The position numbers and the translations under genes are program-made. A DNA stretch of 64,000 nucleotides from Pseudomonas phage PhiPA3. Positions 2,639-64,000 of the stretch are shown here, piece after piece; the stretch's first letter is position 1, and each line of letters opens with the position of its first letter. The DNA lies in sequence record HQ630627.1; one strand, 5' to 3'. The notes under the pieces were generated by a model. The model was not told where the DNA came from. It saw only the letters and a list, made by a program, of their open reading frames with translations, and ran no database searches.

Positions 2639-4069
2639 ATGCACGCTTATCTCCAGCTGTTGGAAGACATCAAGAAATACGGTGTCTTCAAAGGAGATCG
2701 AACCGGGACTGGTACTCAGTCCCTTTTCGGTCGTCAGTTCCGTTTTGATCTGAAAGACAACAACCTGCCGGTTGTGACCACCAAGTTCGTTCATACCCCG
2801 TCGGTTGAAGTCGAACACGTCTGGATGAAGAACGGTCTCACTAACCTGAAGTTCCTGCTCGATCACAACGTGCGGATCTGGAACGAATGGTGCAAGCCGG
2901 GTACTGAAGTGCGCGTACCGGTGGACGAAGGTGAGCTGGTTGATCTGGTTCAACGCAAGTTCAAGTACGTTGACTTCGAAATGCACCACAGCAATGAAAT
3001 CGAAGAAGACTACAAGTTCATCCTAGATGGTGCTCGTACCAACGGCGAGAAAGGTGCGGTACTGCTGATGAGTGGTAAAGCCTGGATGGATGTCGAGCGT
3101 TTCGGCCCAGGCCCCACTACTTACGACTTCTATGGTCATGCTCGTCGAGTCTGGCAAATCGTCTGCGGAGAAACTACTACCCTTAAAGTAGGGGAAGACG
3201 GCTTTGTTTACCGTCTCGTAGATGGTGATCTGGGTCCGGTGTATGGTAAGACCTGGCGTAATATCGAGGACACTCGGATCATCAAGAAGGCTGAACTCCA
3301 GAACTTCTTGGATCGTAAGTTCACATTCGTGGTGGATGTACCGGGTACATCTCTGGAAACCGATCGAGCTGTAGTTACCCGTAATATCGATCAACTGGCT
3401 GAACTGCTCCATGACCTGGAACACAATCCGGATTCGCGGCGTCTGATCATCTGTGCCTGGGACCCGGCTCTGGTTGATGAACAGGCATTGCCTCCGTGCC
3501 ACGCATTTATTCAGTTCTGGACTCGTAAGCTGGAACTGTCCGAACGTCTGAGTCTGTGGGTTTCCAATAATGCCAATGAATTCATCAAGCATCTGTTGGA
3601 TTATAAGGGGGATTGGCCGACTCAAAACGTTATTGACATCGTCAACACTGGCGAATACCAACAAGTCATTACTCAGGTAGCCGAAAGTGATTGGCTGAAG
3701 TTTGTAGAAGCATCGGGTATTGATCTGACTGGTATTCCTGAACGAGGCATTAGTTGCCAACTCTACCAGCGATCAGTTGACGCATTCCTTGGTTTGCCCT
3801 TTAACATCACCTTCTACTCGATCATGACTCATGCACTGGCCAACCAGTTCAACATGGTTGCAGAAGAGTTCATCTGGACTGGGGGTGATTGCCACATTTA
3901 TTCCAACCACCAAGAACAGACTGATCTACAACTGACTCGGAATACGTTCCCGACTCCGAAGATTCATTTCCGTGAGAAAGGTAAACCGTATCTGGAACTG
4001 GACGTAGGTGATTTCGTGATCGAAGGTTATGAGTATCACCCACACATTGCTGGCAAGGTAGCCGTCTAA
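2639..4069 (+). CDS. thyA: thymidylate synthase family (ThyA-like, dUMP-specific Asn retained) with three large insertions
   Basis: 476 aa. Contains ThyA motifs YLQLLEDI..G..KGDRTGTGTQSLFG.QFRFDL, VVTTKF, IWNEW, DLGPVYGKTWR, NPDSRRLIICAWDP, PPCHAFIQFW, SCQLYQRSVDAFLGLPFNI, WTGGDCHIYSNH. Inserts of ~110, ~30 and ~60 aa versus E. coli ThyA (264 aa). RBS aaggaaatacaATG. Confidence 0.85.
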   Translation: MHAYLQLLEDIKKYGVFKGDRTGTGTQSLFGRQFRFDLKDNNLPVVTTKFVHTPSVEVEHVWMKNGLTNLKFLLDHNVRIWNEWCKPGTEVRVPVDEGELVDLVQRKFKYVDFEMHHSNEIEEDYKFILDGARTNGEKGAVLLMSGKAWMDVERFGPGPTTYDFYGHARRVWQIVCGETTTLKVGEDGFVYRLVDGDLGPVYGKTWRNIEDTRIIKKAELQNFLDRKFTFVVDVPGTSLETDRAVVTRNIDQLAELLHDLEHNPDSRRLIICAWDPALVDEQALPPCHAFIQFWTRKLELSERLSLWVSNNANEFIKHLLDYKGDWPTQNVIDIVNTGEYQQVITQVAESDWLKFVEASGIDLTGIPERGISCQLYQRSVDAFLGLPFNITFYSIMTHALANQFNMVAEEFIWTGGDCHIYSNHQEQTDLQLTRNTFPTPKIHFREKGKPYLELDVGDFVIEGYEYHPHIAGKVAV

Positions 4070-8161: not shown

Positions 8162-8621
8162 AAAGGTCAAGTTCTATTCGCGCTTGGCTGCAATGGCTGT
8201 GACACAACCACATTACGTGATCTCCATTGGGGAAGCAAATGACGGCTGTGTATTGGACCCCGAACACAAATCGGTACTGCGTCTGGAGTTCGACGATATC
8301 CCTTATCACGTCGATGGGTATCGTCTGTTCTCGTTGACTGACGCAAGACGAATTTTAAGGTGGCTACGAGACGTTCCTGAGAACGAAACCGTTATAGTCC
8401 ACTGTGAGGCAGGGGTCAGCCGATCGGCTGCTGTAGCGCAATTCATGGTCGATCACCAGGGGTATGAACTGGAGAAAGATCAGTACTGTAATGGGAGCTT
8501 CCTGTGTGCCAATGGCCATGTTTACGGCACACTAAGAATGACTGCGTTGGAAATTACTGACCAGTACCTTCTTATGGAAGCTGAATATGATCGCAAAGTA
8601 AAGGGTATTCCCCAATGGTAG
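8154..8621 (+). CDS. Cys-based protein phosphatase fold (dual-specificity/PTP-like; could act on protein or nucleic-acid substrates)
   Basis: 155 aa; catalytic signature VIVHCEAGVSRSAAV = HCxAGxxR(S/T) P-loop; upstream Asp-containing region. Confidence 0.7.
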   Translation: MSRKVKFYSRLAAMAVTQPHYVISIGEANDGCVLDPEHKSVLRLEFDDIPYHVDGYRLFSLTDARRILRWLRDVPENETVIVHCEAGVSRSAAVAQFMVDHQGYELEKDQYCNGSFLCANGHVYGTLRMTALEITDQYLLMEAEYDRKVKGIPQW

Positions 8622-19514: not shown

Positions 19515-19769
19515 TTGGTGATGGCAACGTTGAAAGAGGATGTCCTCGGTCAAATATCATTCGAGTTGCTAGAACTGCGCCAGGCTTTGCTTGACGACGT
19601 TCCTAACATGACCCCGAGCAAGCTGATTGATCGAGCTATCACTGGTGCAACTACGGTATTGGAAAAGAATTTTGAATTCAAAGCCAAGGCCGTTCAGGAA
19701 TGCAACGGTGATCCCCACTGGTGTGTTGGTATAACCGAGAAATACTGGGAAGACCTTACAAGCGGTTAG
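19515..19769 (+). CDS. small acidic protein, paralog family member (C-terminus ...KYWEDLTSG)
   Basis: 84 aa; RBS ctaaggaggttggtgATG; core LIDRAITGATTVLEKNFE. Confidence 0.65.
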   Translation: MVMATLKEDVLGQISFELLELRQALLDDVPNMTPSKLIDRAITGATTVLEKNFEFKAKAVQECNGDPHWCVGITEKYWEDLTSG

Positions 19770-29472: not shown

Positions 29473-29814
29473 ATGTTTTATGGTGAATCGGACTATCGGA
29501 TGTGGTCATCCACTACTCACGGTAGAGGTAAGCGTAAGGAAATCGTAACAACCGGAGCGTACTGTGTCGTACATGTAGGAACTGGTAAGTTCATTGTAGG
29601 TACGTCAAAGAACGTGTCCACTGAAGTAGATCGCCTGATCGTTGAAATTAAAAGCGGTCGTTCCAAATGGCCCAAGTTCAACAAACTAGTCTCTGGTGAA
29701 CCTGAGAACAGCGATCTGGAATTACTCGAATTTCCAGCTAACATGAAAGATGCTAAAGCGATTGAAGCTCGCATTCGAAAAGCAGTAGTTCCGAGTTGGT
29801 TGTTACTCAATTGA
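29473..29814 (+). CDS. free-standing GIY-YIG nuclease-domain protein (113 aa)
   Basis: GAYCVVHVGTGKFIVGTSKNVSTEVDRLIVEIK matches GIY-x10-YIG..S/T.N...R hallmark spacing. Confidence 0.55.
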   Translation: MFYGESDYRMWSSTTHGRGKRKEIVTTGAYCVVHVGTGKFIVGTSKNVSTEVDRLIVEIKSGRSKWPKFNKLVSGEPENSDLELLEFPANMKDAKAIEARIRKAVVPSWLLLN

Positions 29815-29823
29815 GGTAAGGCT

Positions 29824-30450
29824 ATGTCAGAGATCGATGATACAAAAATCTTCGACTACGCCCACAACGTGGCACGTAATCACAAACGTATTGTTGAAGA
29901 ACTTCGTGCCGAGTTGCAGGATAAAGACTACATCATCTACACCCGTGCCGGAAGCCCCATTGAATTCCCTAAGGTACAGTTTACCATTGGGAGTTTGAAA
30001 GATGATCTACCAGATTTCGTCATGACTGGGGAACTGGCACGGGAAGGCGTGGAAGCGTTCATTAAGCTCTGTCGCGATCATCTGATTAGACGAGTGCCTG
30101 AACACGTAACGCGCCTGTTGATGCATGTAGACGAGATGGTCAAGATCATCAACGAAGAGCTTGCGGCCAATGGTAACGAATTTGATGTTCGTGCTATTGC
30201 TATTGATACGTCGCAGTTCATGTGGGGCGTTGGGATGAACGCTCGGCGTTTCTATGGGGATTACGCCGAAGACGTGAAAGTGATTCAGTTGCAAGTTGCG
30301 CGTGGCGGTGTCTTCCCTGAAGATATTCATTATCCACAAGCACTGTATCCTCAGCCGTTACTGCCGACTAGTGGCTTTGGTAACTATCGTACTCCGATCC
30401 CACAGTGGGTGAAGATGCAGCGACAGTACCAAATTCACCGGTTCAACTGA
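29824..30450 (+). CDS. hypothetical protein
   Basis: 208-aa ORF; RBS gaggtaaggctATG. Confidence 0.65.
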   Translation: MSEIDDTKIFDYAHNVARNHKRIVEELRAELQDKDYIIYTRAGSPIEFPKVQFTIGSLKDDLPDFVMTGELAREGVEAFIKLCRDHLIRRVPEHVTRLLMHVDEMVKIINEELAANGNEFDVRAIAIDTSQFMWGVGMNARRFYGDYAEDVKVIQLQVARGGVFPEDIHYPQALYPQPLLPTSGFGNYRTPIPQWVKMQRQYQIHRFN

Positions 30451-45485: not shown

Positions 45486-45890
45486 ATGGCCCGCGATATT
45501 CAAGTTACTTTTACCGTACTTCCTCCACAAGTGTTGACTATTGCACTGCGTCAACATTACGTGAAGAATGCTCGTCCGGAAAAACGACGGGAAGGAGCAT
45601 TCACAGAGACCGTTGGTCAATCACGTGGATTCGGTAAAGCTATTGACTTCATGATCATCAACGGAATCGTCGAAGCAGACGAGCGACCGATGATCAAGTT
45701 CGTGTGCGACAAGACTGGTGCCAACGTTCAGTGGCAGTTCCCCTCTATTGGGAAATCGGTTACCACTGAGCAACAAGTCGTGAATCTGGTACGAGAACGC
45801 GTGTGCAAGATTCTGCTGGAATACAATCTGTTTGATCCTAAGCAGGTTGAGATGGAAAAACGTGGTTGGGAAAAGTTACTCGCAGCGTAA
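45486..45890 (+). CDS. hypothetical protein
   Basis: 134-aa ORF; RBS aaggattcataATG. Confidence 0.6.
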   Translation: MARDIQVTFTVLPPQVLTIALRQHYVKNARPEKRREGAFTETVGQSRGFGKAIDFMIINGIVEADERPMIKFVCDKTGANVQWQFPSIGKSVTTEQQVVNLVRERVCKILLEYNLFDPKQVEMEKRGWEKLLAA

Positions 45891-46306
45891 TGATATACGT
45901 GGAAACATTTCCCAACTAGACCGAGGTTACAGCTGGACCATCTCCCCTAGGGCTTCCCGTCGCCTAAACTAGGGTGCCACCTGTGGCCTCACTTATCAAC
46001 CCTCTGCTTTCGGTGTGAGGGGTGGTCTCTCCGTATAGAGGAGAGACGCTATAGCGCAGCTCGCCAAGCTGCAAGCCGAAGCGTGATGTCTTACCTGGCT
46101 GGTATGACTAGCGAAGTTACGACGTGGTGTACTTTCCGAAGGCCAAAGGCGCCCCGGCCCATCAGAGTAGCGCTTTCGTTTTCCTTAGAGGCTGCCCTAA
46201 GCAGGCTCGCACTGGCCAGTGAGGAAAACGTCTGTATTCGAAACCAGCATAGCCCCGCCCCATCCGGGCGGGGTTTATGCCCTTAAATATACAAGAGGAG
46301 CTTATA
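45891..46306 (+). other. GC-rich, highly self-complementary noncoding region (candidate structured RNA; strand not established)
   Basis: no credible ORF; local GC clearly above surroundings; multiple hairpins (GGAAACAUUUCC, CUCUCC-GUAUAG-GGAGAG, CGCUAUAGCG, CGUUUUCC...GGAAAACG enclosing two sub-hairpins); ends with terminator 46250-46280. Confidence 0.35.
46250..46280 (+). terminator. rho-independent terminator (CCCCGCCCC-AUCC-GGGCGGGG plus UUUAUGCCC)
   Basis: GC stem plus the TTATGCC flank. Confidence 0.6.
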
Positions 46307-49652: not shown

Positions 49653-49729
<77 letters not shown>

Positions 49730-49813: not shown

Positions 49814-49838
49814 TCACATATGGTAATACACTGAGTAT
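49814..49838 (-). promoter_or_regulatory. minus-strand bipartite motif ATACTCA-N11-TATGTGAC (~85 nt upstream of tRNA-Thr)
   Basis: member of the WTACTCA...TATGTRR family (7 copies on the minus strand). Confidence 0.4.
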
Positions 49839-49884
49839 AGTTTTACTTACAATGACGCAATGGACCACAGTTCGTTATTCTGGC

Positions 49885-49925
49885 TAGATCCGGCATAAAG
49901 GGAACCCGAAGGCTCCCTTTATTCG
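49885..49925 (-). terminator. terminator after the Kelch gene (minus strand reads AAAGGGAGCC-UUCG-GGUUCCCUUUAUGCC)
   Basis: near-perfect stem, UUCG loop on the minus strand, TTATGCC flank. Confidence 0.6.
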
Positions 49926-49944
49926 CTGCTGGTATCTGACCACA

Positions 49945-51804
49945 TTAACTAGGGTTATACACGTACAGTGTTTTCTGTATAACGTTCCCAGGCTGTACGC
50001 CACCCGACACATATATCATGCCATTGACAGATGCACACGAAATGTCGTTACCAATTACAGGTAGATCAGGTAGTTGTTTCCATGTATTAGCAACCACATC
50101 ATATTCCCAGAAATCACTGAACGTTTGTGAAGCTGAAGCACCACCGACAATGTAAACCTTATTGCCAACTGACGCCATACCAAACGAAACTCTTGCCTGT
50201 ATAGCGGTGGGGACATTGGCTAGCTTTGTCCATACACGGGTATTCAAATCCAGTACATGGACATCCCTCGACATGGTAGTTCCATTCAACCAACCAAATG
50301 CCAAGACTAGTTTACCCGCAGCAATAGCCATCCGACCATTCTTGCGTGGTGGGGGTGTGGAACCAGAAACCGATGGTTTAGTCCATTTATTTCCAGTACC
50401 GTCCAGATTGTACTGATAAAGGGCATTGTCAGTTGGACCACTATCACCGAACATATAAAGACTTCGTCCATAAGAAGCCATGCAGTGACCCATTCTCCAA
50501 CTGGGCATTGCGCCATCAGTAATTGAACTCCAGGTATTTACACTGGGGTCGTATGCAAACATATCCGGTGAAGAATTAGATCCACTGAAAATATAAGTCT
50601 TCCCATCTATTGTTGCACCAGCGGTTTCATGCCTTCCTGGTCCTTGGACAGCATCTTCGCTCCATGTGTTCGTATATGGATCGTAACTGTAATTGGTATT
50701 TGTTACCACCGCGCCAGTAGATCCGTAAAGAACCCTGTATTTACCAGCACTCTCAACCCCAACAGCACTCCGGCGACCCGCAGGCATATCGGCTAGCTGT
50801 GTCCATTGGTTCTTCTCAATTGATGGGGCTAATCGAATGCGATAGACATCTTCTAAGAGGTTTGCTTTCAAGAAATATCCTTGGCTGGACATTGGAACCT
50901 TGGTACCACCACTGACAATCATATCCCCATTACCCATCGGTGCAACGGAAACGATGTTTCTATAAGGGATATTCAACTTCAGTGGTTCAGCAAATCGCTT
51001 AGTTTTAATGTGGAATCGTTGTGCATACATTTCACCATTAACGACGTTAATATAGTTGTAGTAATCGCCAGTAACGTATCCGTTACCCTGCCACACCACT
51101 CCTTTATCTTCCGGTAACGTCATCCATGGCGTTTGTTCCCAGGTACCTGCTGCATTATTGTATCTATAAACGTCGAGATACAATCCACCCTTGTCATTAT
51201 TCCAACCACCAAAATGGTAGAAGTAACCATCGTAGTAAAAAAGCTGCTGCCCTGAGCGTGTATCACCGGCGTAGTTTTGACCAGCTTTCCAATCATTAGT
51301 AGCCGGACGGAGTCTAATAGAGTTATTGGAAGTACCGTTCGCTATCATTACGTCGGTACCACCGTCAGAAGCTGCCGCTGTACCATAGAACGAAAATGGC
51401 CCAGGTACAGTGCTCACTCTGGCGCCAGTTGCCTTAGTAAAGCGCTGCATTCTATTGGTCAGACCAGTACCGCCCATACCCGCAGAGTCATATCCGGTGA
51501 TACCACCGAATGTAAAGAACTCTCCGTTATGCATTACATGGTAGCCGATAGAAAAACCAGGGGAGAACGTTCCAGCTGTGGTTGATCCAATATACGAGAA
51601 AGGTTCCAACGTATACTGCCTGAATACGGTCCCTGCTACTGAACCTTCAGTATGGTGACCAGAACCAACAAACAGTGTGTTACCATCCACGTAAGAAGAT
51701 GAACCTCCTAACGCTACTCCTAAATCACCTAGTTTATCTATCCTCCCAAAACCGGTTAAAGGTAGCTGCTCGCCTTTTCCTGACGAAAGTAATATTTCAA
51801 ACAT
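49945..51804 (-). CDS. Kelch-repeat beta-propeller protein (galactose-oxidase-like fold; candidate tail fibre / host-recognition or carbohydrate-binding protein)
   Basis: 619 aa with repeated Kelch-type units (e.g. VYIVGGASASQTFSDFWEYDVVANTWKQLPDLP, IYVSGG...LYVYNP, FYHFGGWNNDKGGLYLDVYRYNNAAGTWEQ). Confidence 0.7.
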   Translation of the reverse strand: MFEILLSSGKGEQLPLTGFGRIDKLGDLGVALGGSSSYVDGNTLFVGSGHHTEGSVAGTVFRQYTLEPFSYIGSTTAGTFSPGFSIGYHVMHNGEFFTFGGITGYDSAGMGGTGLTNRMQRFTKATGARVSTVPGPFSFYGTAAASDGGTDVMIANGTSNNSIRLRPATNDWKAGQNYAGDTRSGQQLFYYDGYFYHFGGWNNDKGGLYLDVYRYNNAAGTWEQTPWMTLPEDKGVVWQGNGYVTGDYYNYINVVNGEMYAQRFHIKTKRFAEPLKLNIPYRNIVSVAPMGNGDMIVSGGTKVPMSSQGYFLKANLLEDVYRIRLAPSIEKNQWTQLADMPAGRRSAVGVESAGKYRVLYGSTGAVVTNTNYSYDPYTNTWSEDAVQGPGRHETAGATIDGKTYIFSGSNSSPDMFAYDPSVNTWSSITDGAMPSWRMGHCMASYGRSLYMFGDSGPTDNALYQYNLDGTGNKWTKPSVSGSTPPPRKNGRMAIAAGKLVLAFGWLNGTTMSRDVHVLDLNTRVWTKLANVPTAIQARVSFGMASVGNKVYIVGGASASQTFSDFWEYDVVANTWKQLPDLPVIGNDISCASVNGMIYVSGGVQPGNVIQKTLYVYNPS

Positions 51805-51867
51805 GAGTATGATCTCAAGTAATCCATCGTTGCATAGGATTAACCTTTATTATAATTGGGTAGACGA

Positions 51868-51898
51868 TATAAACCCACCCGCAATGGGTGGGTTTATG
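51868..51898. terminator. bidirectional-looking terminator (AAACCCACCC-GCAAU-GGGUGGGUUUAUGCC)
   Basis: 7-bp GC stem flanked by A-run and T-run; downstream of minus gene 51902..52783. Confidence 0.6.
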
Positions 51899-51901
51899 CC
51901 A

Positions 51902-52783
51902 TCAGACTAAAATAACCCTAGCTACCGGATGGAATCTTCCACCAAATTCTGGCTCTACTTCACGGGTTTCCCCTACCAGATTTATTTGGACAAAGTATCC
52001 AGGTCTAGTTGGACTTTCAGTGGAGGTTATATACCAAGCATCAGGAGGATCTTGTATATAGCCATAATCGGTCCTGTACGGTACTTTATCTCCACGCATC
52101 ATGATAGCTGGACCTACGTACTTAATGAACTCATCCACCGTAGGACACCAACAGAACATTCTTACGCCAGCAATACCGTTATAACTGCGCGATTGAATAA
52201 CACTACCACCAAATGCGCTGATAGCTTCGGGACTAAATACCGTGGACATGTCTTTCTGGTCACCGGTTCTATCGCCCAACCAACTCCAGTTATACAAAGC
52301 TGTTACGGACCAACCGTCGGCAGCCGGGTAAATACTGGTGCAGATGTATTCATCGTCGTAGGTATAGATTCTTAACCGAGTGCGAAAAAGATCATCATCC
52401 ATGCCATGACCCCTGTCACCGGTTATATCAGTAAAATCAATCCATCTTGGCGGTCTAATACCAGCCCAAGACACAGCGACCAAAGAATTATGCTCGGACG
52501 TTTCTCTAAAACCATAAGGCGCCAATACTCCAAGTCTTGGATCATTATGCCTGAATGTTTTAACATCCGAATAATAGCTTCCCCAATCCATTACATATTC
52601 AAGTAAGTACCAATACTGGAAACCCAGTAAGGTATTGTACTCGATGATACCTATCGTACCTGGATAACTTACCCAATCAGTCGGTAATGTATCTTTTGTA
52701 AATGGCTCGTTAGCCACGTACAGTCGATATTCCTTAGGCAAGTTTAGAGAAATGGTTGGATCTAAATAAAGATGGATGCGCAT
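51902..52783 (-). CDS. hypothetical protein (Trp/Tyr/Gly-rich; likely structural or carbohydrate-binding, operon with the Kelch gene)
   Basis: 293-aa ORF. Confidence 0.65.
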   Translation of the reverse strand: MRIHLYLDPTISLNLPKEYRLYVANEPFTKDTLPTDWVSYPGTIGIIEYNTLLGFQYWYLLEYVMDWGSYYSDVKTFRHNDPRLGVLAPYGFRETSEHNSLVAVSWAGIRPPRWIDFTDITGDRGHGMDDDLFRTRLRIYTYDDEYICTSIYPAADGWSVTALYNWSWLGDRTGDQKDMSTVFSPEAISAFGGSVIQSRSYNGIAGVRMFCWCPTVDEFIKYVGPAIMMRGDKVPYRTDYGYIQDPPDAWYITSTESPTRPGYFVQINLVGETREVEPEFGGRFHPVARVILV

Positions 52784-52784
52784 G

Positions 52785-53642
52785 TTATCCTCCGTTACCG
52801 ATCAAGCGCAGCGCCACTTTCCAATAAATTTTATACAAACTGGTATTCACATCCGGTGCAGTGATAAAATTGTCAGGATAAAATTTAGTCAGTCCAGCGC
52901 GGGAGTATAGCTTCTGTGTCACGTAGGAGGAAATCCTGTTTGCAACTACGATCGTATCTTCAGCTACATTAAGGAAACCAGCAGCGGCTTCAACGATACT
53001 CTTACCCCGTACTTCATGCTCTATATTCTCCAAGTACTCGGCATCGCTGTCGCAATAACTGTTCATGATGTATTCAGCCGTATTGGACATATCGAAAGCA
53101 TAGGTGAAATCGTTGATGGTGATTAACTTACCACTAGACAGCTCGGTGAGCACGTCATATAAATTCTCTGGCAGTATCTGTAAGTAACCCCCCAATGCAG
53201 TGTAGTAGTAATCACCGTTAAGATCATTGAGCTTAGTCCACTTATTGGTCCAGTTACCAATCACCAGTCCAGGTATATTCAATGCAGTGATCAATTCATC
53301 AGCCGTAGGCAATTGAGGGTCTTGTGTTACCCCAATAACCTTACCGAAGACATGTTGGCTCATTGACGAGCGCAGTTCACTACCAGGACCGTATAGACCA
53401 CTTGCCTTCATGGTAAACTGAGGACTAATGGCCTTGGTATTATTGAACACTGTCTGAATACGGTAGTTATACGTCGACCCACCAACTGCGGTAACGTCCC
53501 TGAAAGAGTTAGCAAATCCATCCAATACTGCAATGGGTGAATCTGTCGGGTCTTCTGGGATTGGGGTATCCACTGGAGTACGGAAAATGTTTATAACTGT
53601 ACGATCGGGTGGATTGGGGTTCTTAAATTCAAACTGAATCAT
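52785..53642 (-). CDS. hypothetical protein
   Basis: 285-aa ORF; start overlaps the upstream stop (ATGA). Confidence 0.65.
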   Translation of the reverse strand: MIQFEFKNPNPPDRTVINIFRTPVDTPIPEDPTDSPIAVLDGFANSFRDVTAVGGSTYNYRIQTVFNNTKAISPQFTMKASGLYGPGSELRSSMSQHVFGKVIGVTQDPQLPTADELITALNIPGLVIGNWTNKWTKLNDLNGDYYYTALGGYLQILPENLYDVLTELSSGKLITINDFTYAFDMSNTAEYIMNSYCDSDAEYLENIEHEVRGKSIVEAAAGFLNVAEDTIVVANRISSYVTQKLYSRAGLTKFYPDNFITAPDVNTSLYKIYWKVALRLIGNGG

Positions 53643-53977
53643 TAATACACCTCAAACGTCGGCATGTACGGAGTAGCGAACTCTACTTTAAGATCAGTTA
53701 CGGGTTCAGCATGGGCGTCCATTGGGTCTTCTAATCTAACCTTAATAAGACGTGCAGGCAAGCTGCCTCCGAGGTAATTAATAACGACGTAAATGATGTT
53801 GTCTTTACCCGCACAGATGGTATCTTGGCCGGACTGGTGAGGGTGGTCTATATTGCGAAGAACGGCACTCCAACGTCTGTTCAACGGCATCCATTGATAT
53901 ACTGGGAATCTAGGATTACTCGATATCGGGAATAAAGTCGACGGAACATAGAACAGTGTATCACGCCAGATATGCAT
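53642..53977 (-). CDS. hypothetical protein
   Basis: 111-aa ORF. Confidence 0.55.
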   Translation of the reverse strand: MHIWRDTLFYVPSTLFPISSNPRFPVYQWMPLNRRWSAVLRNIDHPHQSGQDTICAGKDNIIYVVINYLGGSLPARLIKVRLEDPMDAHAEPVTDLKVEFATPYMPTFEVY

Positions 53978-53984
53978 TCAACCT

Positions 53985-54015
53985 TTTGACGGAATAAAAG
54001 AGTAGCCGAAGCTAC
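53985..54015 (-). terminator. terminator after the tRNA-Asn/Tyr unit (minus strand reads GAGAGUAGC-UUCG-GCUACUCUUUUAUU)
   Basis: 8-bp stem, UUCG loop on the minus strand, T-run. Confidence 0.6.
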
Positions 54016-54026
54016 TCTCGTTATAT

Positions 54027-54112
54027 GGTGGTTGAAGGAAGGAATTGAACCTCTAGCCTAGGCGGGGGTGTTACAGACCCCTGACAGTAGCCATCTGTCT
54101 ATACATCAACCG
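54027..54112 (-). tRNA. tRNA-Tyr-like (anticodon GUA), type II length (86 nt), non-canonical D-arm
   Basis: minus strand: acceptor GGUUGAU/UUCAACC-A-CCA, anticodon arm GGGGU-CUGUAAC-ACCCC, T-arm AGAGG-UUCAAUU-CCUUC closely resembling E. coli tRNA-Tyr; the D-arm region (GACAG...CUGUC) does not fit standard spacing. Confidence 0.5.
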
Positions 54113-54267
54113 AAGGTGTGGAGACTCCATTTGACCGCTCTGGAACCTCTCCGAATTTGGGCGGCATTTTTATTATACTGAGCTCCCCGCAGTCTCTCAG
54201 TCCCAGGCGGCCAGCTTTGGGCTGCTGACCTTACGCTCGGTGTGACTGTTGTTAACAGTCAGTGTTT

Positions 54268-54343
54268 GGCTCCGGAAACATGATTCGAACATGTGACCCA
54301 CAAGTTAACAGCTTGTTGCTCTACCAGCTGAGCTATTCCGGAA
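54268..54343 (-). tRNA. tRNA-Asn (anticodon GUU), CCA encoded
   Basis: minus strand: UCCGGAA-UA-GCUCAGCUGGUAGAGCA-ACAAG-CUGUUAA-CUUGU-GGGUC-ACAUG-UUCGAAU-CAUGU-UUCCGGA-G-CCA. Confidence 0.85.
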
Positions 54344-54475
54344 GGAAATTTGACGGTTTGCTTTTTCAGAGTGGGGGAACACCGACAACCCTCTCACCAA
54401 TGCAAGCGTTTGCTCACCTGGCTTTGCGAGGACAGAATCGTTAGCCCAGTGGGCGATTGCATTTCCTCGTATACT

Positions 54476-54492
54476 ATTACATACTGAGTAAG
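54476..54492 (-). promoter_or_regulatory. minus-strand motif TTACTCAG-TATGTAAT immediately after the stop of 54493..54732 (~133 nt upstream of tRNA-Asn)
   Basis: short-spacer member of the WTACTCA/TATGTRR family. Confidence 0.45.
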
Positions 54493-54732
54493 TTATTTAT
54501 TTTCATCGCAACGCCAACCGTACACTGTGTAGTTCCCATTATCAGAAACTTTCATGGCGGTAGCTGTGCGTTGAATCTCTACGTTCGGTAGATTCTTGAA
54601 CTTACTGTATTGTATTTCTAGGTGGTTGAGGCATTGGGGCATGGAGTCAAACTGAATGTAGGACTTCTCTACATTAGTAATACCAAACAACCCTACCTTA
54701 GCAACCAGTGCTAACATGGCTACCTTGACCAT
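54493..54732 (-). CDS. hypothetical small protein
   Basis: 79-aa ORF. Confidence 0.5.
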   Translation of the reverse strand: MVKVAMLALVAKVGLFGITNVEKSYIQFDSMPQCLNHLEIQYSKFKNLPNVEIQRTATAMKVSDNGNYTVYGWRCDENK

Positions 54733-54739
54733 TGCTATC

Positions 54740-55033
54740 TTATTCCGTGTGCTTCAGATATTTCTCCAAAGCTTCGTGGGCTCGGTTGAAATACACCAGC
54801 GGAACGAACGAAACATTGGTGACTCGATGTTCGTCATGCAGTTCCCACTTGATAGCCTTTACTTGGCCATTGGGGAGAATGATATCAAGACCATTAGGGA
54901 ACAATACAATCCCTTCGTCAATCCTGATATGCTCGGGAGCAGCAGCTCCACCACGAAAAGCCGGGTTGAAAGTCAGGTTGTATAGTTTTTGAATAAGCGG
55001 CGTAATAATCGCCTGTTGCATTTGACTTTCCAT
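54740..55033 (-). CDS. hypothetical protein
   Basis: 97-aa ORF. Confidence 0.5.
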   Translation of the reverse strand: MESQMQQAIITPLIQKLYNLTFNPAFRGGAAAPEHIRIDEGIVLFPNGLDIILPNGQVKAIKWELHDEHRVTNVSFVPLVYFNRAHEALEKYLKHTE

Positions 55034-55380
55034 TATCTTCCCCTATTGTTGTTGTATGGGGTAACGGTTGCAACTATCGACATGCCCTTAAAGAAAGGAT
55101 GATAATCAAACGCAAGAATACCGGTTTCCTGTACCAGCCAGAAGGTAAGCCTGAGTGTATCTCCATTGTCCCCACGAATGGATATCTTACCTTCTGTACG
55201 GCTACGCTTGTCTACGTAACCGACTTGCACTTTGGCAGCGGGATAGATTTGACCGCGACTGTTCATCAACCGAACGTTAGAAATCCCAAACGAGTCGGTG
55301 ATCTCCGGCTGAACATTCAAGTCCTTGTAAATCGGATAATGGTTTTGTGCAATCGGAATCGTTACGTCTTGGTCAATCAT
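55033..55380 (-). CDS. hypothetical protein
   Basis: 115-aa ORF, ATGA overlap with the downstream gene. Confidence 0.55.
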   Translation of the reverse strand: MIDQDVTIPIAQNHYPIYKDLNVQPEITDSFGISNVRLMNSRGQIYPAAKVQVGYVDKRSRTEGKISIRGDNGDTLRLTFWLVQETGILAFDYHPFFKGMSIVATVTPYNNNRGR

Positions 55381-55502
55381 GCCATGCTTCCTTTAATAAT
55401 GGCTACGGTACCGGACCGAAACCGGTGACTGCTCGCAGTACCCCGCAGCGGATACCCAGTGTTGAATCCAAGGAGTATGCAGAGACTGTCGAGATCTCCA
55501 CA

Positions 55503-55528
55503 TACCAATTCCCTTTGAGTAACTTTTA
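55503..55528 (-). promoter_or_regulatory. minus-strand bipartite motif TTACTCA-N11-TATGTGGAG directly after the stop of 55526..56032
   Basis: long-spacer family member, ~120 nt upstream of ATG 55380. Confidence 0.4.
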
Positions 55529-56032
55529 GCTAAAGCGGATTACGAGGATGTCATTTCCAAAGGTGTCTGCTACCCATTGGTTGAATTCCTTATCAGTAAT
55601 CCCTCGAAGATTTAAATTGTAGGAAGCATTGTCTACAAGTAGATACTTTAGCCGTTTGGAGATATCTGAATTGAAGTCTTTTTGGATCGAGTATTGCTCG
55701 GGGTGACGAATGTACTTACGTAGCCTTTCAGTGATTAGATACGGTAATGTCAAGCCTGGACTCTTAGACTGAATACCCCGTTGAATTTTATCGTCCGTGA
55801 ATACAGCCAGGCATTCCCCTTGATGTCGAGTAGCGAATTCAACGAGTGCACTACTGCTACCACATTGACGACCTACAAAGAACCCTACGGTACGACATTC
55901 GCGAATCAACACGTGTGACGAGATATTACCTCGATGGTATTCCCAACCTTCATTGGTTTTTTGGATCAATGCATCCAGGATGTCCTGGTAATTTACAATA
56001 GTTCTTACGAACCGATTATAGCCATTGGCCAT
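55526..56032 (-). CDS. hypothetical protein
   Basis: 168-aa ORF. Confidence 0.6.
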   Translation of the reverse strand: MANGYNRFVRTIVNYQDILDALIQKTNEGWEYHRGNISSHVLIRECRTVGFFVGRQCGSSSALVEFATRHQGECLAVFTDDKIQRGIQSKSPGLTLPYLITERLRKYIRHPEQYSIQKDFNSDISKRLKYLLVDNASYNLNLRGITDKEFNQWVADTFGNDILVIRFS

Positions 56033-56304
56033 GATTATCTCCGGTATTACAATGCAACATAAAGTCCCGCCCTAGGGCAGGACCTGATGCCGACTTTGGA
56101 AAGGTCTCGTCGTCCCTTCCTCATCTACATGCGAACTTTGTTAGTGGATACAAATAACGAGATTCGCGCGTCTTTAGTCGCCCCAACGACTTCCCACAGT
56201 ACCATTAACTTTCCACTAATCGTCTCTGGTTTTCCGGGTGCTATAAGCATATCAAGTCAATGCAGTCTGCGGGGCTCGGGTGAGAGTGGCACCGCCTCGA
56301 TATG

Positions 56305-56347
56305 GTAGCAATTAGCTACATATCATCGCAACGCCAGTATATTTTCA
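56305..56347 (-). promoter_or_regulatory. degenerate minus-strand motif AATATACTGGC-N10-TATGTAGC after the stop of 56348..56704
   Basis: shares the AATATACTGGC 11-mer with the copy at 57545-57575. Confidence 0.3.
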
Positions 56348-56704
56348 CTACCAGCGACTGGCACTGAATGGACGAGGATATTCAAGGCCAGCAATATCTT
56401 TACCGTTAACCACGACTACCCATTGATTCATGGTGGCGGTCTCACGGTAAACGATTGTTGGTTTAATCTCTTCACGAGTATACGTGGTTGCATACCATTC
56501 ACGCCAAACATCAATCAGACGGGCTTCCATGATTTCACGTAGTTGAGCCATGTTCCAGGTGCTATTTCCCGCTAGATCAGCCACTACCTCGCGAAGTCCA
56601 TCTAGGTATTTCTCATTTACATGGGGTTCGCCCCGGTTAGCCAATAGCTTCTCGTTGTTTGCATCCCGATCTGCTTGACTTATGAATATACGATTCGTAG
56701 TCAT
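56348..56704 (-). CDS. hypothetical protein
   Basis: 118-aa ORF; ATGA overlap with the upstream gene. Confidence 0.55.
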   Translation of the reverse strand: MTTNRIFISQADRDANNEKLLANRGEPHVNEKYLDGLREVVADLAGNSTWNMAQLREIMEARLIDVWREWYATTYTREEIKPTIVYRETATMNQWVVVVNGKDIAGLEYPRPFSASRW

Positions 56705-57171
56705 TTTCTCAGTCCCTCAATCTCAGCACGTAAAAATGAACTAATCATACCTGCTGCTTTTCGAGTGGGCGAATCAAACATTTTGTCATTCCCGGCTACT
56801 GAGTCAGTAACTTTCTGAGCTAGTATCAGTCCAGGGATATAAGCACGATTACCATGAGTTGCGATGCGTGGTTGATCACGATAATACTCAACGTGATGAT
56901 AGCCACTAGGATGCACTACGATAACTTTGATGCTATCTCGTTCCCTAGTAATTTCGATCTTGAAATCGGACAATCCATCTTCAATCAAAGCAATCGTCAG
57001 CTTGCATTCCAGGACCTGGAAGAGTAGCTTGTCTGTGAGATGCGGTTGATTCTGAATCGTAATGGGCGCATTGAAATACAGCAAATCCCTGATACGGGCA
57101 CCGAATACTTTCTGTTCAGTGGTATCCAGATCTCTTTGCAGTTGTTCTTCGTTGTTTTGGCTCATTACCAT
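56701..57171 (-). CDS. hypothetical protein
   Basis: 156-aa ORF. Confidence 0.6.
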   Translation of the reverse strand: MVMSQNNEEQLQRDLDTTEQKVFGARIRDLLYFNAPITIQNQPHLTDKLLFQVLECKLTIALIEDGLSDFKIEITRERDSIKVIVVHPSGYHHVEYYRDQPRIATHGNRAYIPGLILAQKVTDSVAGNDKMFDSPTRKAAGMISSFLRAEIEGLRK

Positions 57172-57300
57172 TGTCCTTTGTCTCTATGAATTTTGTCGTA
57201 TTTGATATAATAGTCTCTACCGCAGTGGGCACACCACTTGTAAAGACGGCCGCCTTGACATTGATTTCCAACTAGCTTGTGGCCCAATAGCCAGCACAGT

Positions 57301-57528
57301 TTACACCGTATTGAGTAGAGCTTCGACACGTTGCGTCCCCTGGCAAACCAGAACTGGTACTTCGATACCTTTCTCCTCGCAGTATTTTACGAGATCTTCA
57401 TGTGCCTTTCGCCACTGCTCCAGCAGCTGCCGATTCCGAATGCGATTAGCTTCCTTTTCTTCGGGAGTCAGTTCTGTTATATTACGAACACTGAGCTTGG
57501 GGATGGGATGGTATTCAGCAGATTTCAT
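57301..57528 (-). CDS. hypothetical small protein
   Basis: 75-aa ORF with RBS ggagatccaatATG on the minus strand. Confidence 0.55.
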   Translation of the reverse strand: MKSAEYHPIPKLSVRNITELTPEEKEANRIRNRQLLEQWRKAHEDLVKYCEEKGIEVPVLVCQGTQRVEALLNTV

Positions 57529-57544
57529 ATTGGATCTCCGTTTT

Positions 57545-57575
57545 CTCTATAATGGAAAGGAAGCCAGTATATTCT
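57545..57575 (-). promoter_or_regulatory. minus-strand motif AATATACTGGC-N11-TATAGAG ~20 nt upstream of ATG 57528
   Basis: family member positioned like a promoter for 57301..57528; divergent from + promoter element 57590-57598. Confidence 0.4.
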
Positions 57576-57589
57576 AAATATCTAGAGGC

Positions 57590-57598
57590 CTATATTAC
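57590..57598 (+). promoter_or_regulatory. promoter-like element, core CTATATTAC (class B: tctagaggcCTATATTACaattgTGAT)
   Basis: 52 nt upstream of ATG 57650. Confidence 0.5.
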
Positions 57599-57649
57599 AA
57601 TTGTGATATCCAGAAGAGATATCATTCAATAACCTAAGAGGAAACTACA

Positions 57650-57844
57650 ATGAACGACAACATCATCGATTTCGAAGCTTACCGTAACAAGAACAACGGT
57701 AAGCGCAAGATGAAGAAGATCAAGAACGGCGTGTTCAAAGCCATCGACGAAACGCTGGATGATCGGGTCATAGAAAAAGTCCGTGACGTTACTATCTGCG
57801 CGGCTGTGGTTGGTATCGTCTGGTATTGCCTCACCCGTGATTGA
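57650..57844 (+). CDS. small protein with C-terminal TM segment
   Basis: 64 aa; RBS gaggaaactacaATG; followed by a terminator. Confidence 0.55.
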   Translation: MNDNIIDFEAYRNKNNGKRKMKKIKNGVFKAIDETLDDRVIEKVRDVTICAAVVGIVWYCLTRD

Positions 57845-57847
57845 TTA

Positions 57848-57895
57848 TTAGGGAGCCCTTCGGGGCTCCCTTCTATATCTTTTTTCTTTTTGTCT
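57848..57895 (+). terminator. rho-independent terminator (GGGAGCCC-UUCG-GGGCUCCC plus U-rich)
   Basis: stem-loop then ttctatatcttttttctttttg. Confidence 0.75.
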
Positions 57896-57908
57896 GATAC
57901 GACATAAA

Positions 57909-57932
57909 GGAAGTAGCCACCGCTACTTCCTT
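57909..57932 (-). terminator. terminator after tRNA-Leu (GGAAGUAGC-loop-GCUACUUCC, A/T flanks both sides)
   Basis: 9-bp perfect stem immediately downstream of the tRNA 3' end. Confidence 0.55.
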
Positions 57933-57940
57933 TATTTAAT

Positions 57941-58025
57941 TGGTACCCGAAGTGGGACTCGAACCCACACGTCACAAGGACAACTGATTTTAAGTCAGCA
58001 GCGGCTGCCTTTACGCCATTCGGGC
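57941..58025 (-). tRNA. tRNA-Leu (anticodon UAA), type II, CCA encoded
   Basis: minus strand: GCCCGAAUGGCGUAAAGGCAGCCGCUGCUGACUUAAAAUCAGUUGUCCUUGUGACGUGUGGGUUCGAGUCCCACUUCGGGUACCA, closely resembling E. coli tRNA-Leu(UAA). Confidence 0.85.
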
Positions 58026-58162
58026 ATATAGAGAACAGACGACAAGGCCATGTTGTAGCTTTCGCTAGTTATACGTATCTCATTCCCTAGGGAAGTGCCT
58101 AACGGCTTCTTTCGTACAACATTCATGGCTTTACAGACGTTGCTCAGCCCTCGTGAGCTGTT

Positions 58163-58190
58163 CTCTACATATTAGATAACACTTGAGTAT
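58163..58190 (-). promoter_or_regulatory. minus-strand bipartite motif ATACTCA-N12-TATGTAGAG directly after the stop of 58190..58660, ~138 nt upstream of tRNA-Leu
   Basis: long-spacer family member. Confidence 0.45.
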
Positions 58191-58660
58191 TATCTTGGTC
58201 GCGGTCGATTCCCTGGACTCTGGCGATGAATCACCCGAGCAGGCATGTTAGGTACTTCGACAGCAGGCTTAAATAAGATCTTTGCAATCATGCGATCGAT
58301 TGCATCTTTCTGATCTTGAATAAACTCAAAGTGTTCTTCTGGTGGATCAGAGAACTTAGTGCGTGACTTACTTTGCCACTCTTCGTCTTTGGGATGGATA
58401 TATCCACCAATGACTCCGAATCGCAAGAAGTTGTCTGCTATGCCCAGACCTGGTTGACTTTCAAAACAGACCACTCGATCTGCACCACGTGAATGGCCGA
58501 TATAGAAGTCTGCTTGTGGTGGGCAAGTATCAGGCTTGCCCTTATCCATGATTACTTCTACACCTCGTTGGGTGAGGTAATCAACAATCGCAGCGTAGTA
58601 AGCCCGAGCTACATCGTTATTGATGAACAGGGGATTACCGGTGATTAGAACGGCCTTCAT
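58190..58660 (-). CDS. hypothetical protein (GHSRG nucleophile-elbow-like motif; possible small alpha/beta-hydrolase-like fold)
   Basis: 156-aa ORF; N-terminus MKAVLITGNP and IGHSRGA. Confidence 0.55.
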   Translation of the reverse strand: MKAVLITGNPLFINNDVARAYYAAIVDYLTQRGVEVIMDKGKPDTCPPQADFYIGHSRGADRVVCFESQPGLGIADNFLRFGVIGGYIHPKDEEWQSKSRTKFSDPPEEHFEFIQDQKDAIDRMIAKILFKPAVEVPNMPARVIHRQSPGNRPRPR

Positions 58661-58690
58661 GGCGAAGCCTCCGAGTGAATCTCATAAGAT

Positions 58691-58912
58691 TCAGGCTTCG
58701 ATAGGCTCAACTACACGACGATGTTGTACAGTACCCCTGTCTGTAACTACCGTGATGGTGTTCTGGTTGTCAATAGCTACTACCTTCACCCCTTTAATAG
58801 TGGTGTGAATAGCTGCTGCCATCTCCGCTTTGGAGTAACGCCAATTGGCCATCAGGATTGCCGATACCTGGGTTTGAAGTTGTTTCAGTTCATTGATGTT
58901 TACAGACTGCAT
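58691..58912 (-). CDS. hypothetical small protein
   Basis: 73-aa ORF. Confidence 0.5.
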   Translation of the reverse strand: MQSVNINELKQLQTQVSAILMANWRYSKAEMAAAIHTTIKGVKVVAIDNQNTITVVTDRGTVQHRRVVEPIEA

Positions 58913-58967
58913 GGTTGTTTCCTTTTAGAGGGGATTTCATGAGATTAAACGTATCAGTAAAATACAA

Positions 58968-59000
58968 CATAAAGCCCCTCCCGAAGGAGGGGCTGTTATG
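58968..59000 (-). terminator. hairpin on the minus strand (CAGCCCCUCC-UUCG-GGAGGGGCUUUAUG) between the 59125 motif and gene 58912
   Basis: 9-bp stem, UUCG loop on the minus strand. Confidence 0.5.
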
Positions 59001-59124
59001 CCAACCATCAACACAACAAGGAGAATCCCTCGACAGTGAGTCTTGCTCACTAGAAGCCACTTGGAAGGGTTAGTGGCTCCGGCGCGCCGAGTGTAGGAGA
59101 ACGAGGAGTAGGCATTCTTCTACA

Positions 59125-59148
59125 TAACATTACATATTGAGTAACTTA
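59125..59148 (-). promoter_or_regulatory. minus-strand motif GTTACTCAA-TATGTAATG immediately after the stop of 59146..59847
   Basis: short-spacer family member; plus strand here reads ACATTACATATTGAGTAAC. Confidence 0.45.
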
Positions 59149-59847
59149 ATTATTAATCAGTTTCTCGATACGTTCTGCAATATCGGTCTCTCCAATATTA
59201 CTGGAGAAGTCTTCCAGCCCAACATTCACACCATCGATCATGCGGACTCCAATGCGGAGAGCTTGTTTAGCATCATCCTTAAGTCCATCCTGACCGGCTT
59301 GCTTTAATGATGTCTGATATCGTTTTAGAGTTTGAACGTCTGTACTCTCAAAACTCAGATGTATATAAAGAGTTATGGGTTTATCGACGTATGATTCCAT
59401 TCCTGGACGGACCATGACCTGACCTTTGACCAACTTGGCAGCGTAATCACCTTTAATCGTTTTGTTGATGTAGCTGTTCAACCCACGTCCTATTTGTGCC
59501 AGTTCAATCATGTTGGCCAGGTAGATTGGAGGCAATGATTTGATCGAGTACAGATAAAATGAGTTATCACCAAATGCAACAAGAATCCATTGACCCTGTA
59601 CGAATTTATAACTCTGGACATTGGATTTTCCTGATAGATTCATGTAAGGAATCATTCCACCTAAGCTATTCAGAATCGCTGAGGCATTCTGAATCACAGG
59701 CGTAGGACTGGGTTGCTCATCTGGGTCCACGTCAGCACCAGATCCATCGGCAACCTGATCAAAGAAATCCTCGATGTAATCCATCAAGTTGAATTCTTCT
59801 TCAATAGAGATATTGGTTTTCATGAGCTCTACCAAAATGTTTGACAT
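59146..59847 (-). CDS. hypothetical acidic protein
   Basis: 233-aa ORF. Confidence 0.65.
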   Translation of the reverse strand: MSNILVELMKTNISIEEEFNLMDYIEDFFDQVADGSGADVDPDEQPSPTPVIQNASAILNSLGGMIPYMNLSGKSNVQSYKFVQGQWILVAFGDNSFYLYSIKSLPPIYLANMIELAQIGRGLNSYINKTIKGDYAAKLVKGQVMVRPGMESYVDKPITLYIHLSFESTDVQTLKRYQTSLKQAGQDGLKDDAKQALRIGVRMIDGVNVGLEDFSSNIGETDIAERIEKLINN

Positions 59848-59863
59848 AGAATTAACGGCATAC

Positions 59864-61446: not shown

Positions 61447-61550
61447 TTTGAAACGTCCTAATTGGTCTTAATATTTCTCACACTAGATAACCATCTAGAG
61501 TAATTTATCTTGGGCATAAAGCCCCAGCTTTCAAACTGGGGCAGTATGTC

Positions 61551-63839: not shown

Positions 63840-64000
63840 GTTCCGTTGAGTCCAGTGTCACGTAAAAAGTGTGGAACGAATCCGTTAACATAAACTAAAT
63901 TCATCCCAGTAATTTTACTTCCCCCGCGAATTAAAAATCTATTGCATAAGGTTGGAAGAAACTTACCGACCATAAAGAAGATAATGTGCAGATCTCTGCG

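Follow-up and report, generated by a model that had tools for sequence, protein, structure and literature searches.

A repeated bipartite motif as a candidate phiKZ-type middle promoter in the tRNA and nrd gene block of Pseudomonas phage PhiPA3

The minus-strand gene block and its repeated motif

The DNA analysed here (the window) is a stretch of 64,000 nucleotides (nt) from Pseudomonas phage PhiPA3 (HQ630627.1), identified by PHROG and Pfam scans and by tblastn as belonging to a phiKZ-like jumbo phage, the group in which PhiPA3 has been classed (Monson 2011, as cited in PMC7598289). Its minus strand carries a block that is syntenic with the right end of phiKZ and comprises nrdA, nrdB, the gene for the glycine-zipper protein gp304, gp303, tRNA genes interleaved with small genes, and gp298, while the RNA polymerase genes lie outside the window. 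The 233-amino-acid product of the open reading frame (ORF) 59146-59847 in this block is 100% identical to a PhiPA3 protein. Within this block a motif recurs in which an A-rich tract is followed by WTACT(C/G)(A/G) (the TACT box), then by 11 (rarely 12 or 13) bases and finally by TAT(G/A)(T/C)R (the initiator). PhiPA3 is without a transcript map (PMC11077065), and it is by comparison with phiKZ that we consider the copies of this motif (Table 1) to be, very probably, middle-class promoters of the phiKZ type.

The motif had been described before from the letters of the window, without database searches (the sequence-only reading), as WTACTCA and TATGTRR separated by either one or 11–12 nt. The pattern TACTCA-N{1,13}-TATGT occurs seven times against 0.46 ± 0.67 expected from dinucleotide-preserving shuffles of the window, a count reached in none of 100 shuffles, and a relaxed pattern gave a similar result (7 vs 0.56 expected). 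Taken separately the halves are not enriched, WTACTCA being found 20 times (16.8 expected) and TATGTRR, if anything depleted, also 20 times (32.5 expected). What is non-random is the pairing of the two halves and their placement, not either half alone. Intergenic DNA makes up 15.2% of the block from 49.4 to 63.95 kb yet holds all seven core sites (P ~2e-6), each of them oriented toward the next downstream unit. The A-rich tract lies directly 5' of the TTAC/TACT core in the seven core copies and also at 63912, 61503 and 45876 (+), and TATG proper is present in five of the seven.

When spacers of 0–25 nt were scanned a sharp peak appeared at 11, both in the window (six sites) and in the whole phiKZ genome (23 sites vs a background of about nine) as well as in a 25-kb stretch of PA1C (eight sites), and a spacer of 1 was not enriched in phiKZ or PA1C. 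Both copies that had been assigned a one-nucleotide spacer have TATGTAAT within the spacer and, at the standard distance, a second initiator; refitted to the N11 layout they read TTACTCA-ATATGTAATGT-TATGTAG (59144) and TTACTCA-GTATGTAATAG-TATACGA (54491). A model with two spacing classes was ruled out by the scan, as one geometry fits every copy, and the earlier statement of two spacings, although literally true, is misleading. The same geometry bears on whether TTACTC and TATGTA might be the −35 and −10 hexamers of host sigma-70 promoters, to which both have a superficial likeness. The boxes are 11–12 bp apart instead of 16–18, a consensus scan of 45-64 kb found 24 sites against 28.6 in shuffles, and phiKZ-type infection does not depend on the RNA polymerase of the host (PMC4666361, PMC7598289). 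On the spacing and the absence of any excess of sites we rejected recognition by the host enzyme, which has next to no probability.

All seven strings quoted in the sequence-only reading were recovered from the minus strand, although the ranges stated for them are displaced by a few bases (for example, the string of 33 nt placed at 55503-55528 lies at 55528-55496, and that of 22 nt placed at 54476-54492 at 54495-54474). Adjacency of the four best copies to stop codons was likewise recovered, with the W of WTACTCA 2, 0, 4 and 2 nt from the stop, close to the 0–2 nt proposed, and the distances to the tRNA genes agree with those given before (measured from the G of TATG, tRNA-Leu, tRNA-Asn and tRNA-Thr are 143, 128 and 88 nt downstream respectively). 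Two copies that had been called degenerate (near 56305-56347 and 57545-57575) are present and prove to be ATACTGG variants (56340 and 57570) with the same spacing. The range of 49814-59148 first assigned to the class was too narrow, since copies continue to nrdB (61503) and nrdA (63912), and its description as a minus-strand class is mostly right but passes over a conserved + strand copy at 45876. Further matches lie at 8554, 13321 and 38713 (+) and at 51074 (−), the last inside the gp298-like gene. A + strand match at 29803 (TTACTCA-N13-TATGTCA) was set aside, as ORF 29824-30450 has its start codon in this TATG and the ‘spacer’ holds the ribosome-binding site.

The sequence-only reading had also set this motif apart from an element on the + strand, and rightly so, the early-type core TATATTAC found there being a different motif. 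It occurs seven times in the window, always on the + strand, against 1.36 expected; no copy was found on the minus strand of the 64-kb window, and none of the seven coincides with a TACT-box site as a single element. As the minus strand of the window lacks the early-type core, the block needs promoters of its own. The early-type copy at 57591 precedes a + strand ORF of 64 amino acids (57650-57844) that is embedded in the minus block and ends at an apparently bidirectional terminator (57850-57871); PHIKZ293.2 of phiKZ is a similarly embedded + strand gene. Terminators within the block consist of a GC-rich hairpin followed by TTTATG(Y), or in two cases by TTTATT or TTTATAT, an appearance shared by phiKZ and PA1C, and their T-tract thus contains TATG, the core of the phiKZ late promoter. 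A virion-protein gene starts 10 nt after the TATG at 59858, where terminator and late start may thus be fused.

Table 1. Copies of the TACT–TATG motif, early-type cores, terminators and predicted RNAs in the window
Feature	Coordinates	Strand	Elements	Context
Copy A	63886..63912	−	TTACTGG 63912-63906, N13, TATGTTA 63892-63886; predicted start 63889	~50 nt upstream of nrdA start; outside 49814-59148
Copy B	61479..61503	−	TTACTCT 61503-61497, N11, TAGTGTG 61485-61479; predicted start ~61482	between nrdA terminator and nrdB start; outside 49814-59148
Copy C	59120..59144	−	TTACTCA 59144-59138, N11 (with TATGTAAT), initiator TATGTAG 59126-59120; predicted start G 59123	starts 2 nt past stop of gp303-like gene
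Copy D	58165..58190	−	ATACTCA 58190-58184, N12, TATGTAG 58171-58165; predicted start G 58168	TACT box overlaps TAA stop of ORF 58190-58660
Copy E, variant	57545..57570	−	ATACTGG 57570-57564, N12, TATAGAG 57551-57545; predicted start 57548	downstream of tRNA-Leu terminator, 20 nt upstream of ORF 57301-57528; divergent from + strand early-type promoter (TATATTAC, 57591-57598)
Copy F, variant	56316..56340	−	ATACTGG 56340-56334, N11, TATGTAG 56322-56316; predicted start G 56319	
Copy G	55498..55522	−	TTACTCA 55522-55516, N11, TATGTGG 55504-55498; predicted start G 55501	121 nt upstream of ORF 55033-55380
Copy H	54467..54491	−	TTACTCA 54491-54485, N11 (with TATGTAAT), initiator TATACGA 54473-54467; predicted start 54470 (or 54480)	128 nt upstream of tRNA-Asn (54267-54342), then tRNA-Tyr
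Copy I	49814..49838	−	ATACTCA 49838-49832, N11, TATGTGA 49820-49814; predicted start G 49817	downstream of gp298-like terminator; 88 nt upstream of tRNA-Thr (49653-49729), then tRNA-Ser
+ strand copy	45876..45900	+	TTACTCG 45876-45882, N11, TATACGT 45894-45900; predicted start 45897	
Early-type core TATATTAC	82, 14327, 17110, 17964, 24133, 57478, 57591	+	core search	
Block terminators	61542-61515, 59891-59858, 58994-58966, 57930-57903, 56083-56058, 54018-53993, 51895-51867, 49920-49894, 48873-48848	−		
tRNA-Leu leader	58026..58168	−	143 nt, fold z = −3.5	precedes tRNA-Leu 57941-58025
Structured small RNA from copy C	58966..59123	−	158 nt, fold z = −4.8	ends at hairpin-TTTATG terminator 58994-58966
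Structured leader or noncoding RNA from copy F	56052..56319	−	~270 nt, fold z = −2.0	terminator hairpin-TTTATG 56083-56058, ahead of gp297-like gene 55526-56032
Candidate noncoding RNA region after + strand copy	45876-46280	+	~380 nt, ORF-free, GC-rich, strongly folded	hairpin-TTTATG terminator to ~46280

Conservation in relatives and comparison with known promoters

Orthologous intergenic regions were compared in phiKZ, in a phiKZ-like IMG/VR contig (L002) and in PA1C. In all three the composite motif lies on the same strand, immediately past the gp303 homologue and again upstream of the gp297 homologue, and it is also found in these phages upstream of tRNA-Leu, -Asn, -Asp/-Met, -Tyr and -Thr. 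Alignment of the spacers downstream of gp303 and upstream of gp297 showed the motif to be kept amid otherwise diverged sequence. Orthologues of copy C lie at 13533 in L002 and at 19745 in PA1C (L015), that of copy F at 270617 in the gp298–gp297 spacer of phiKZ (ATACTGG-N11-TATGTAA), and the phiKZ counterpart of copy D at 273476, upstream of tRNA-Leu/Pro/gp301. At the phiKZ sites upstream of this last unit and of gp305, gp306 and gp54 the sequence is exactly the composite motif, and the site at gp54 is identical over 29 nt to the tRNA-Asn copy. The phiKZ sites also include those at 271944, 269777, 266830 and 45469. Even the unusual forms have counterparts: upstream of nrdB the window has TTACTCT-N11-TAGTGTG (61503) and phiKZ ATACTAA-N11-TATTGTA (PHIKZ305), upstream of nrdA the odd N13 spacing is kept (TTACTGG-N13-TATGTTA at 63912; ATACTTA-N13-TATGTTG at PHIKZ306), and the TATACG initiator of copy H recurs at N11 in PA1C (L015 8540 and 3772) and at 45894 in the window. 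Conservation in relatives, on which the sequence-only reading had made its proposal depend, was thus found at syntenic intergenic places in both phiKZ and PA1C.

A profile built from 22 sites of PhiPA3, phiKZ and PA1C reads AAAWAWTACTSR-N11-TATGTAG. The T-A-C of the first box and the T-A-T of the second are invariant, the fourth initiator position is G in 19 of the 22, A is found in 16–20 of the 22 at four upstream positions, and the spacer shows a weak preference for TGTAAT. One might suppose from such a box that it is an operator, bound by a phage regulator (a repressor or timing factor) beside the starts, and not a promoter element; a bound regulator would also fit the constant spacing from the initiator and the inhibition that the phiKZ middle element exerts in vitro on transcription by the phage non-virion RNA polymerase (nvRNAP; PMC4666361). 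However, the box in the 22-site profile is without dyad symmetry, practically all unit starts in the block have the box, and there is no second conserved upstream element that could serve as the promoter. An operator as such is very improbable, and the idea overlaps with that version of the middle-promoter explanation in which an extra factor is required.

The middle promoter of phiKZ has been defined as 5'-AAanTTACc-3' centred at about −24 (Yakunina 2015, PMC4666361). Differential RNA sequencing of phiKZ (Wicke 2020, PMC8244752) gave 28 primary transcription start sites (TSSs) with a TACT motif centred 22 nt upstream and an A-rich repeat before it; those named there belong to PHIKZ133, 301, 305 and 306, with a secondary one for PHIKZ054, and two are tRNA-associated. 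Ceyssens 2014 (as cited) and Putzeys 2024 (PMC10914365) also belong to the literature on these promoters. The PhiPA3 sites resemble the phiKZ middle promoters in having an A-rich tract and then, some 20 nt ahead of the start, a TTAC/TACT core, in the syntenic units that they serve (tRNAs, nrdA, nrdB and the neighbours of gp297 and gp301) and in that both are distinct from the AT-rich early motif, and the distance from core to TATG is as in phiKZ promoter P78M (AAAATTACCAA-N12-TATG, with a TTACCAA core). The window copies upstream of nrdA (63912), nrdB (61503), tRNA-Leu (58190) and other tRNAs match genes of the phiKZ TSS class. The suggestion made earlier, of a promoter class for the tRNA and minus-strand block, is therefore supported both by the match to the phiKZ middle-promoter motif and by the orthologous positions.

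There are also differences. The core is TACT(C/G)(A/G) in PhiPA3 but TTACC in phiKZ, and TAT(G/A) at N11 is almost universal in the PhiPA3 block whereas the literature gives a correctly placed TATG for two phiKZ middle promoters only (P62M and P78M; PMC4666361). The conserved positions are far clearer than in the ‘weakly conserved short motif’ of phiKZ; with 48% G+C, against 37% in phiKZ, the PhiPA3 genome is less AT-rich and the consensus is therefore much sharper. The phiKZ middle promoters have been placed by mapped 5' ends, the PhiPA3 sites by sequence comparison. For 201phi2-1, which can be compared by description only, PMC11512511 reports a middle motif that mirrors that of phiKZ, a tRNA-Leu transcribed from a middle promoter and a small RNA (sRNA), derived from a 5' untranslated region (UTR), immediately upstream of a tRNA. 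The PhiPA3 element belongs to the promoter class already described in phiKZ and 201phi2-1, and what is added here is a sharper consensus, its strict link over 11 bp to a start of the TATG type and a map of promoters and noncoding RNAs (ncRNAs) for PhiPA3. In outline the middle promoters of T4 are likewise bipartite, and activator-dependent as the PhiPA3 class probably is, with a MotA box at −30 and a −10 element, but in T4 it is the host sigma-70 holoenzyme that is remodelled by AsiA and MotA, whereas here a phage polymerase would be at work and the start-site element overlaps +1.

The TATG itself invites comparison with the late promoters of phiKZ (5'-T-3 A T G+1-3'), which are recognized through gp123, the beta-like subunit of the nvRNAP (PMC4666361, PMC12809450), and most PhiPA3 copies share this initiator, with the start probably at the G. 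The sites could then be ordinary late promoters used by nvRNAP alone, with TATG as their only element and the TACT box as a separate signal or a relic. This would agree with the TATG in five of the seven core copies, TATG being the late core bound by the beta-like subunit (PMC12809450), and with the presence of some virion-protein genes in the block. Late phiKZ promoters, however, lack upstream conservation (PMC7598289), whereas in the present sites conservation is highest in the upstream box, which stands at a fixed spacing in three phages. Moreover, purified nvRNAP of phiKZ gave no transcription in vitro from middle promoters, those bearing TATG included, and the middle element reduces the late-promoter activity of this enzyme in vitro (PMC4666361), while the tRNAs, nrdA and nrdB carry middle-type TSSs in phiKZ (PMC8244752). 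We regard simple late promoters as highly unlikely.

RNAs predicted from the putative promoters

If transcription starts at the predicted positions, several of the resulting RNAs would be structured from their first nucleotides, and their unusually strong folds (z from −3.5 to −4.8) count in favour of these starts. The first 11 nt of the tRNA-Leu leader pair with a second run of 11 nt, ending 2 nt short of the tRNA, and the 5' end of the 88-nt tRNA-Thr leader (fold z = −4.8) pairs with bases just before its tRNA; in both leaders there is thus a closing helix formed by the first 9–11 bases with bases ending 2–5 nt before the tRNA. The fold test gave no significant structure for the tRNA-Asn leader or for the leader of the mRNA starting at 55501. 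The tRNA-Tyr downstream of tRNA-Asn (54030-54109) was called by ARAGORN only, scores below the gathering threshold of the Rfam tRNA model and has a weak tRNA-Sec-like match (26 bits), and the 40 nt before it (region 54030-54152 (−)) look like the 5' half of a tRNA of class II (GGAGAGGTTCCAGAGCGGTCAAATGGAG). From its sequence this may be a rearranged or atypical tRNA.

The sRNA predicted from copy C, after the gp303-like gene, is by alignment the homologue of a phiKZ sRNA of 141 nt upstream of PHIKZ302, which has been validated by northern blotting (PMC10914365), and the two start at an equivalent place. nhmmer found matches to it in phiKZ, L002 and PA1C. Two hairpins are kept by compensatory changes among PhiPA3, phiKZ and PA1C, with compensatory pairs also in the comparison with L002, and the hairpin loop (A/C)(A/C)CCCUUCCA is invariant. 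The RNA of ~270 nt predicted from copy F has conserved blocks in common with PA1C (nhmmer E 4e-8). At the corresponding place upstream of gp297 phiKZ makes an abundant ncRNA of ~100 nt that was ascribed to processing of the PHIKZ298 3'UTR for want of a mapped TSS (PMC8545117); because a full promoter motif lies at its 5' side (the orthologue of copy F, at 270617 in NC_004629), this phiKZ RNA may instead be a primary transcript. The region after the + strand copy at 45876 has 77% nucleotide identity to unannotated intergenic DNA of PA1C-group phages, in which the promoter is kept, while its flanking genes are without a nucleotide match in those phages; there is also a weak match at the syntenic phiKZ spot 263171. 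A search of the leaders and candidate ncRNAs against Rfam returned only tRNAs.

Two other genes of the window deserve mention. The 293-amino-acid product of ORF 51902-52783 (−) matches PHROG 22666 (virion structural protein) at 1e-136, and tblastn against the phage collection found nothing for it; the source genomes of this PHROG are probably absent from the collection searched. The thymidylate synthase ORF 2639-4069 (+), of 476 amino acids, is matched by Pfam in two stretches (profile positions 2–162, then the remainder), which suggests an insertion of ~150–200 amino acids within the enzyme. PHIKZ235 of phiKZ is similarly long (1467 nt).

New initiation, RNA processing and a working model

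The explanation that would make do without new promoters is processing of RNA, in which an endoribonuclease of the host or the phage would cleave read-through transcripts in or close to TATGTRR and so give the 5' ends of the tRNA precursors and small mRNAs. Five copies lie directly after a stop codon with no terminator between, so that read-through RNA would include them, the initiator box forms the 5' strand of a helix in several leaders, and for the phiKZ middle transcripts processing of earlier transcripts is retained as a formal alternative (PMC10612078). On the other hand, strong hairpin terminators stand immediately before copies B, E and I (61503, 57570 and 49838), and transcription beyond them is sensibly explained only by new initiation. 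What the initiator pairs with varies in sequence and distance between copies, and the A-tract and TACT box, the most conserved part, lie upstream of the putative 5' end at a fixed distance of 11 bp and have no conserved pairing partner, which fits recognition of DNA and not of an RNA fold. In phiKZ, moreover, the motif marks primary 5' ends, resistant to or enriched by terminator exonuclease (TEX) treatment (PMC8244752). A processing or antitermination site, which the sequence-only reading had offered in brackets, is for these reasons not favoured, and we think it most unlikely that cleavage accounts for the motif.

That the copies are phiKZ-type middle promoters of PhiPA3 is by far the most probable explanation, and the points that weigh against it are as follows. 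Promoter function in PhiPA3 is argued from homology, and the match to phiKZ TSSs is indirect, having been made through the genes named in the text and the phiKZ sequence and not through TSS coordinates. The phiKZ enzyme, when purified, does not transcribe the phiKZ middle promoters in vitro, and processing is kept there as a formal alternative (PMC4666361, PMC10612078). Copies E, H and B (57570, 54491 and 61503) are without TATG proper. A start at the G of TATG puts TACT at −20 to −17, which is 2–4 nt nearer than the published centre at −22 to −24, which leaves the start nucleotide uncertain within a few bases. Lastly, no close relative of PhiPA3 was found in the phage collection, IMG/VR and metagenome scans that could show conservation over a short distance: a near-identity nucleotide search of a 10-kb region against the phage collection returned tRNA genes only, IMG/VR scans gave no relative with the gp303-like protein and only phiKZ-like and more distant contigs with nrdB, and a metagenome scan with the gp298-like protein gave only unrelated Kelch-repeat proteins.

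The timing, polymerase, factor and start nucleotide given for the PhiPA3 sites in what follows are those that we infer. As a nucleus-forming jumbo phage PhiPA3 would transcribe its genome with its own multisubunit RNA polymerases, and for the middle class of phiKZ the current view is of nvRNAP together with a DNA- or polymerase-binding factor (PMC10612078). Each PhiPA3 promoter would be bipartite, with an upstream part of A-tract and TACT box between about −26 and −15 (WTACT(C/G)(A/G) at about −21 to −15), in which the A-rich tract often makes use of the TAA that ends the preceding gene, then a spacer of 11 bp (rarely 12–13) with its weak TGTAAT preference, and then the initiator TAT(G/A)(T/C)R overlapping the start, where the first base of the transcript is probably the G of TATG, as at phiKZ P78M and the phiKZ late promoters. 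To judge from phiKZ, the nvRNAP would read TATG in the non-template strand, and the TACT box would be read either by a sigma-like subunit of the polymerase or by a middle-stage factor. Such promoters would fire independent short units, namely three pre-tRNA units with long leaders, several operons of small genes, nrdA, nrdB and at least three ncRNAs, most of which would end at the GC hairpin and TTTATG terminators. The transcripts would typically open with a helix that includes their first nucleotides and would shield the 5' end, and in the tRNA units the leader may form one folded domain beside the RNase P site.

The coupling of TACT to TATG at exactly 11 bp, near-invariant in three genera, leads to a further proposal, namely that the middle promoters are in essence late-type TATG promoters, read by the beta lobe, that are gated by an upstream element needing a phage factor, and that several of them serve chiefly to make conserved structured ncRNAs. 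We put this forward tentatively, as a possibility that falls well short of the middle-promoter assignment in likelihood. If it is true, the crisp PhiPA3 sites would be the best bait for the middle factor, and the ncRNAs concerned would be the sRNA beside gp303, the RNA of 270 nt ahead of the gp297-like gene, that of ~380 nt at 45.9 kb and the folded leaders of the tRNA units.

The phage nucleus is widely studied with PhiPA3 as the model, and for this phage the present analysis provides about ten candidate promoter positions and predicted starts for the tRNA, nrd and small-RNA units. No new mechanism is revealed; the practical use lies in annotation, phage engineering and the design of pull-down baits. 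The fixed 11-bp link between TACT and TATG bears on the question of which enzyme or factor reads the middle promoters (PMC10612078).

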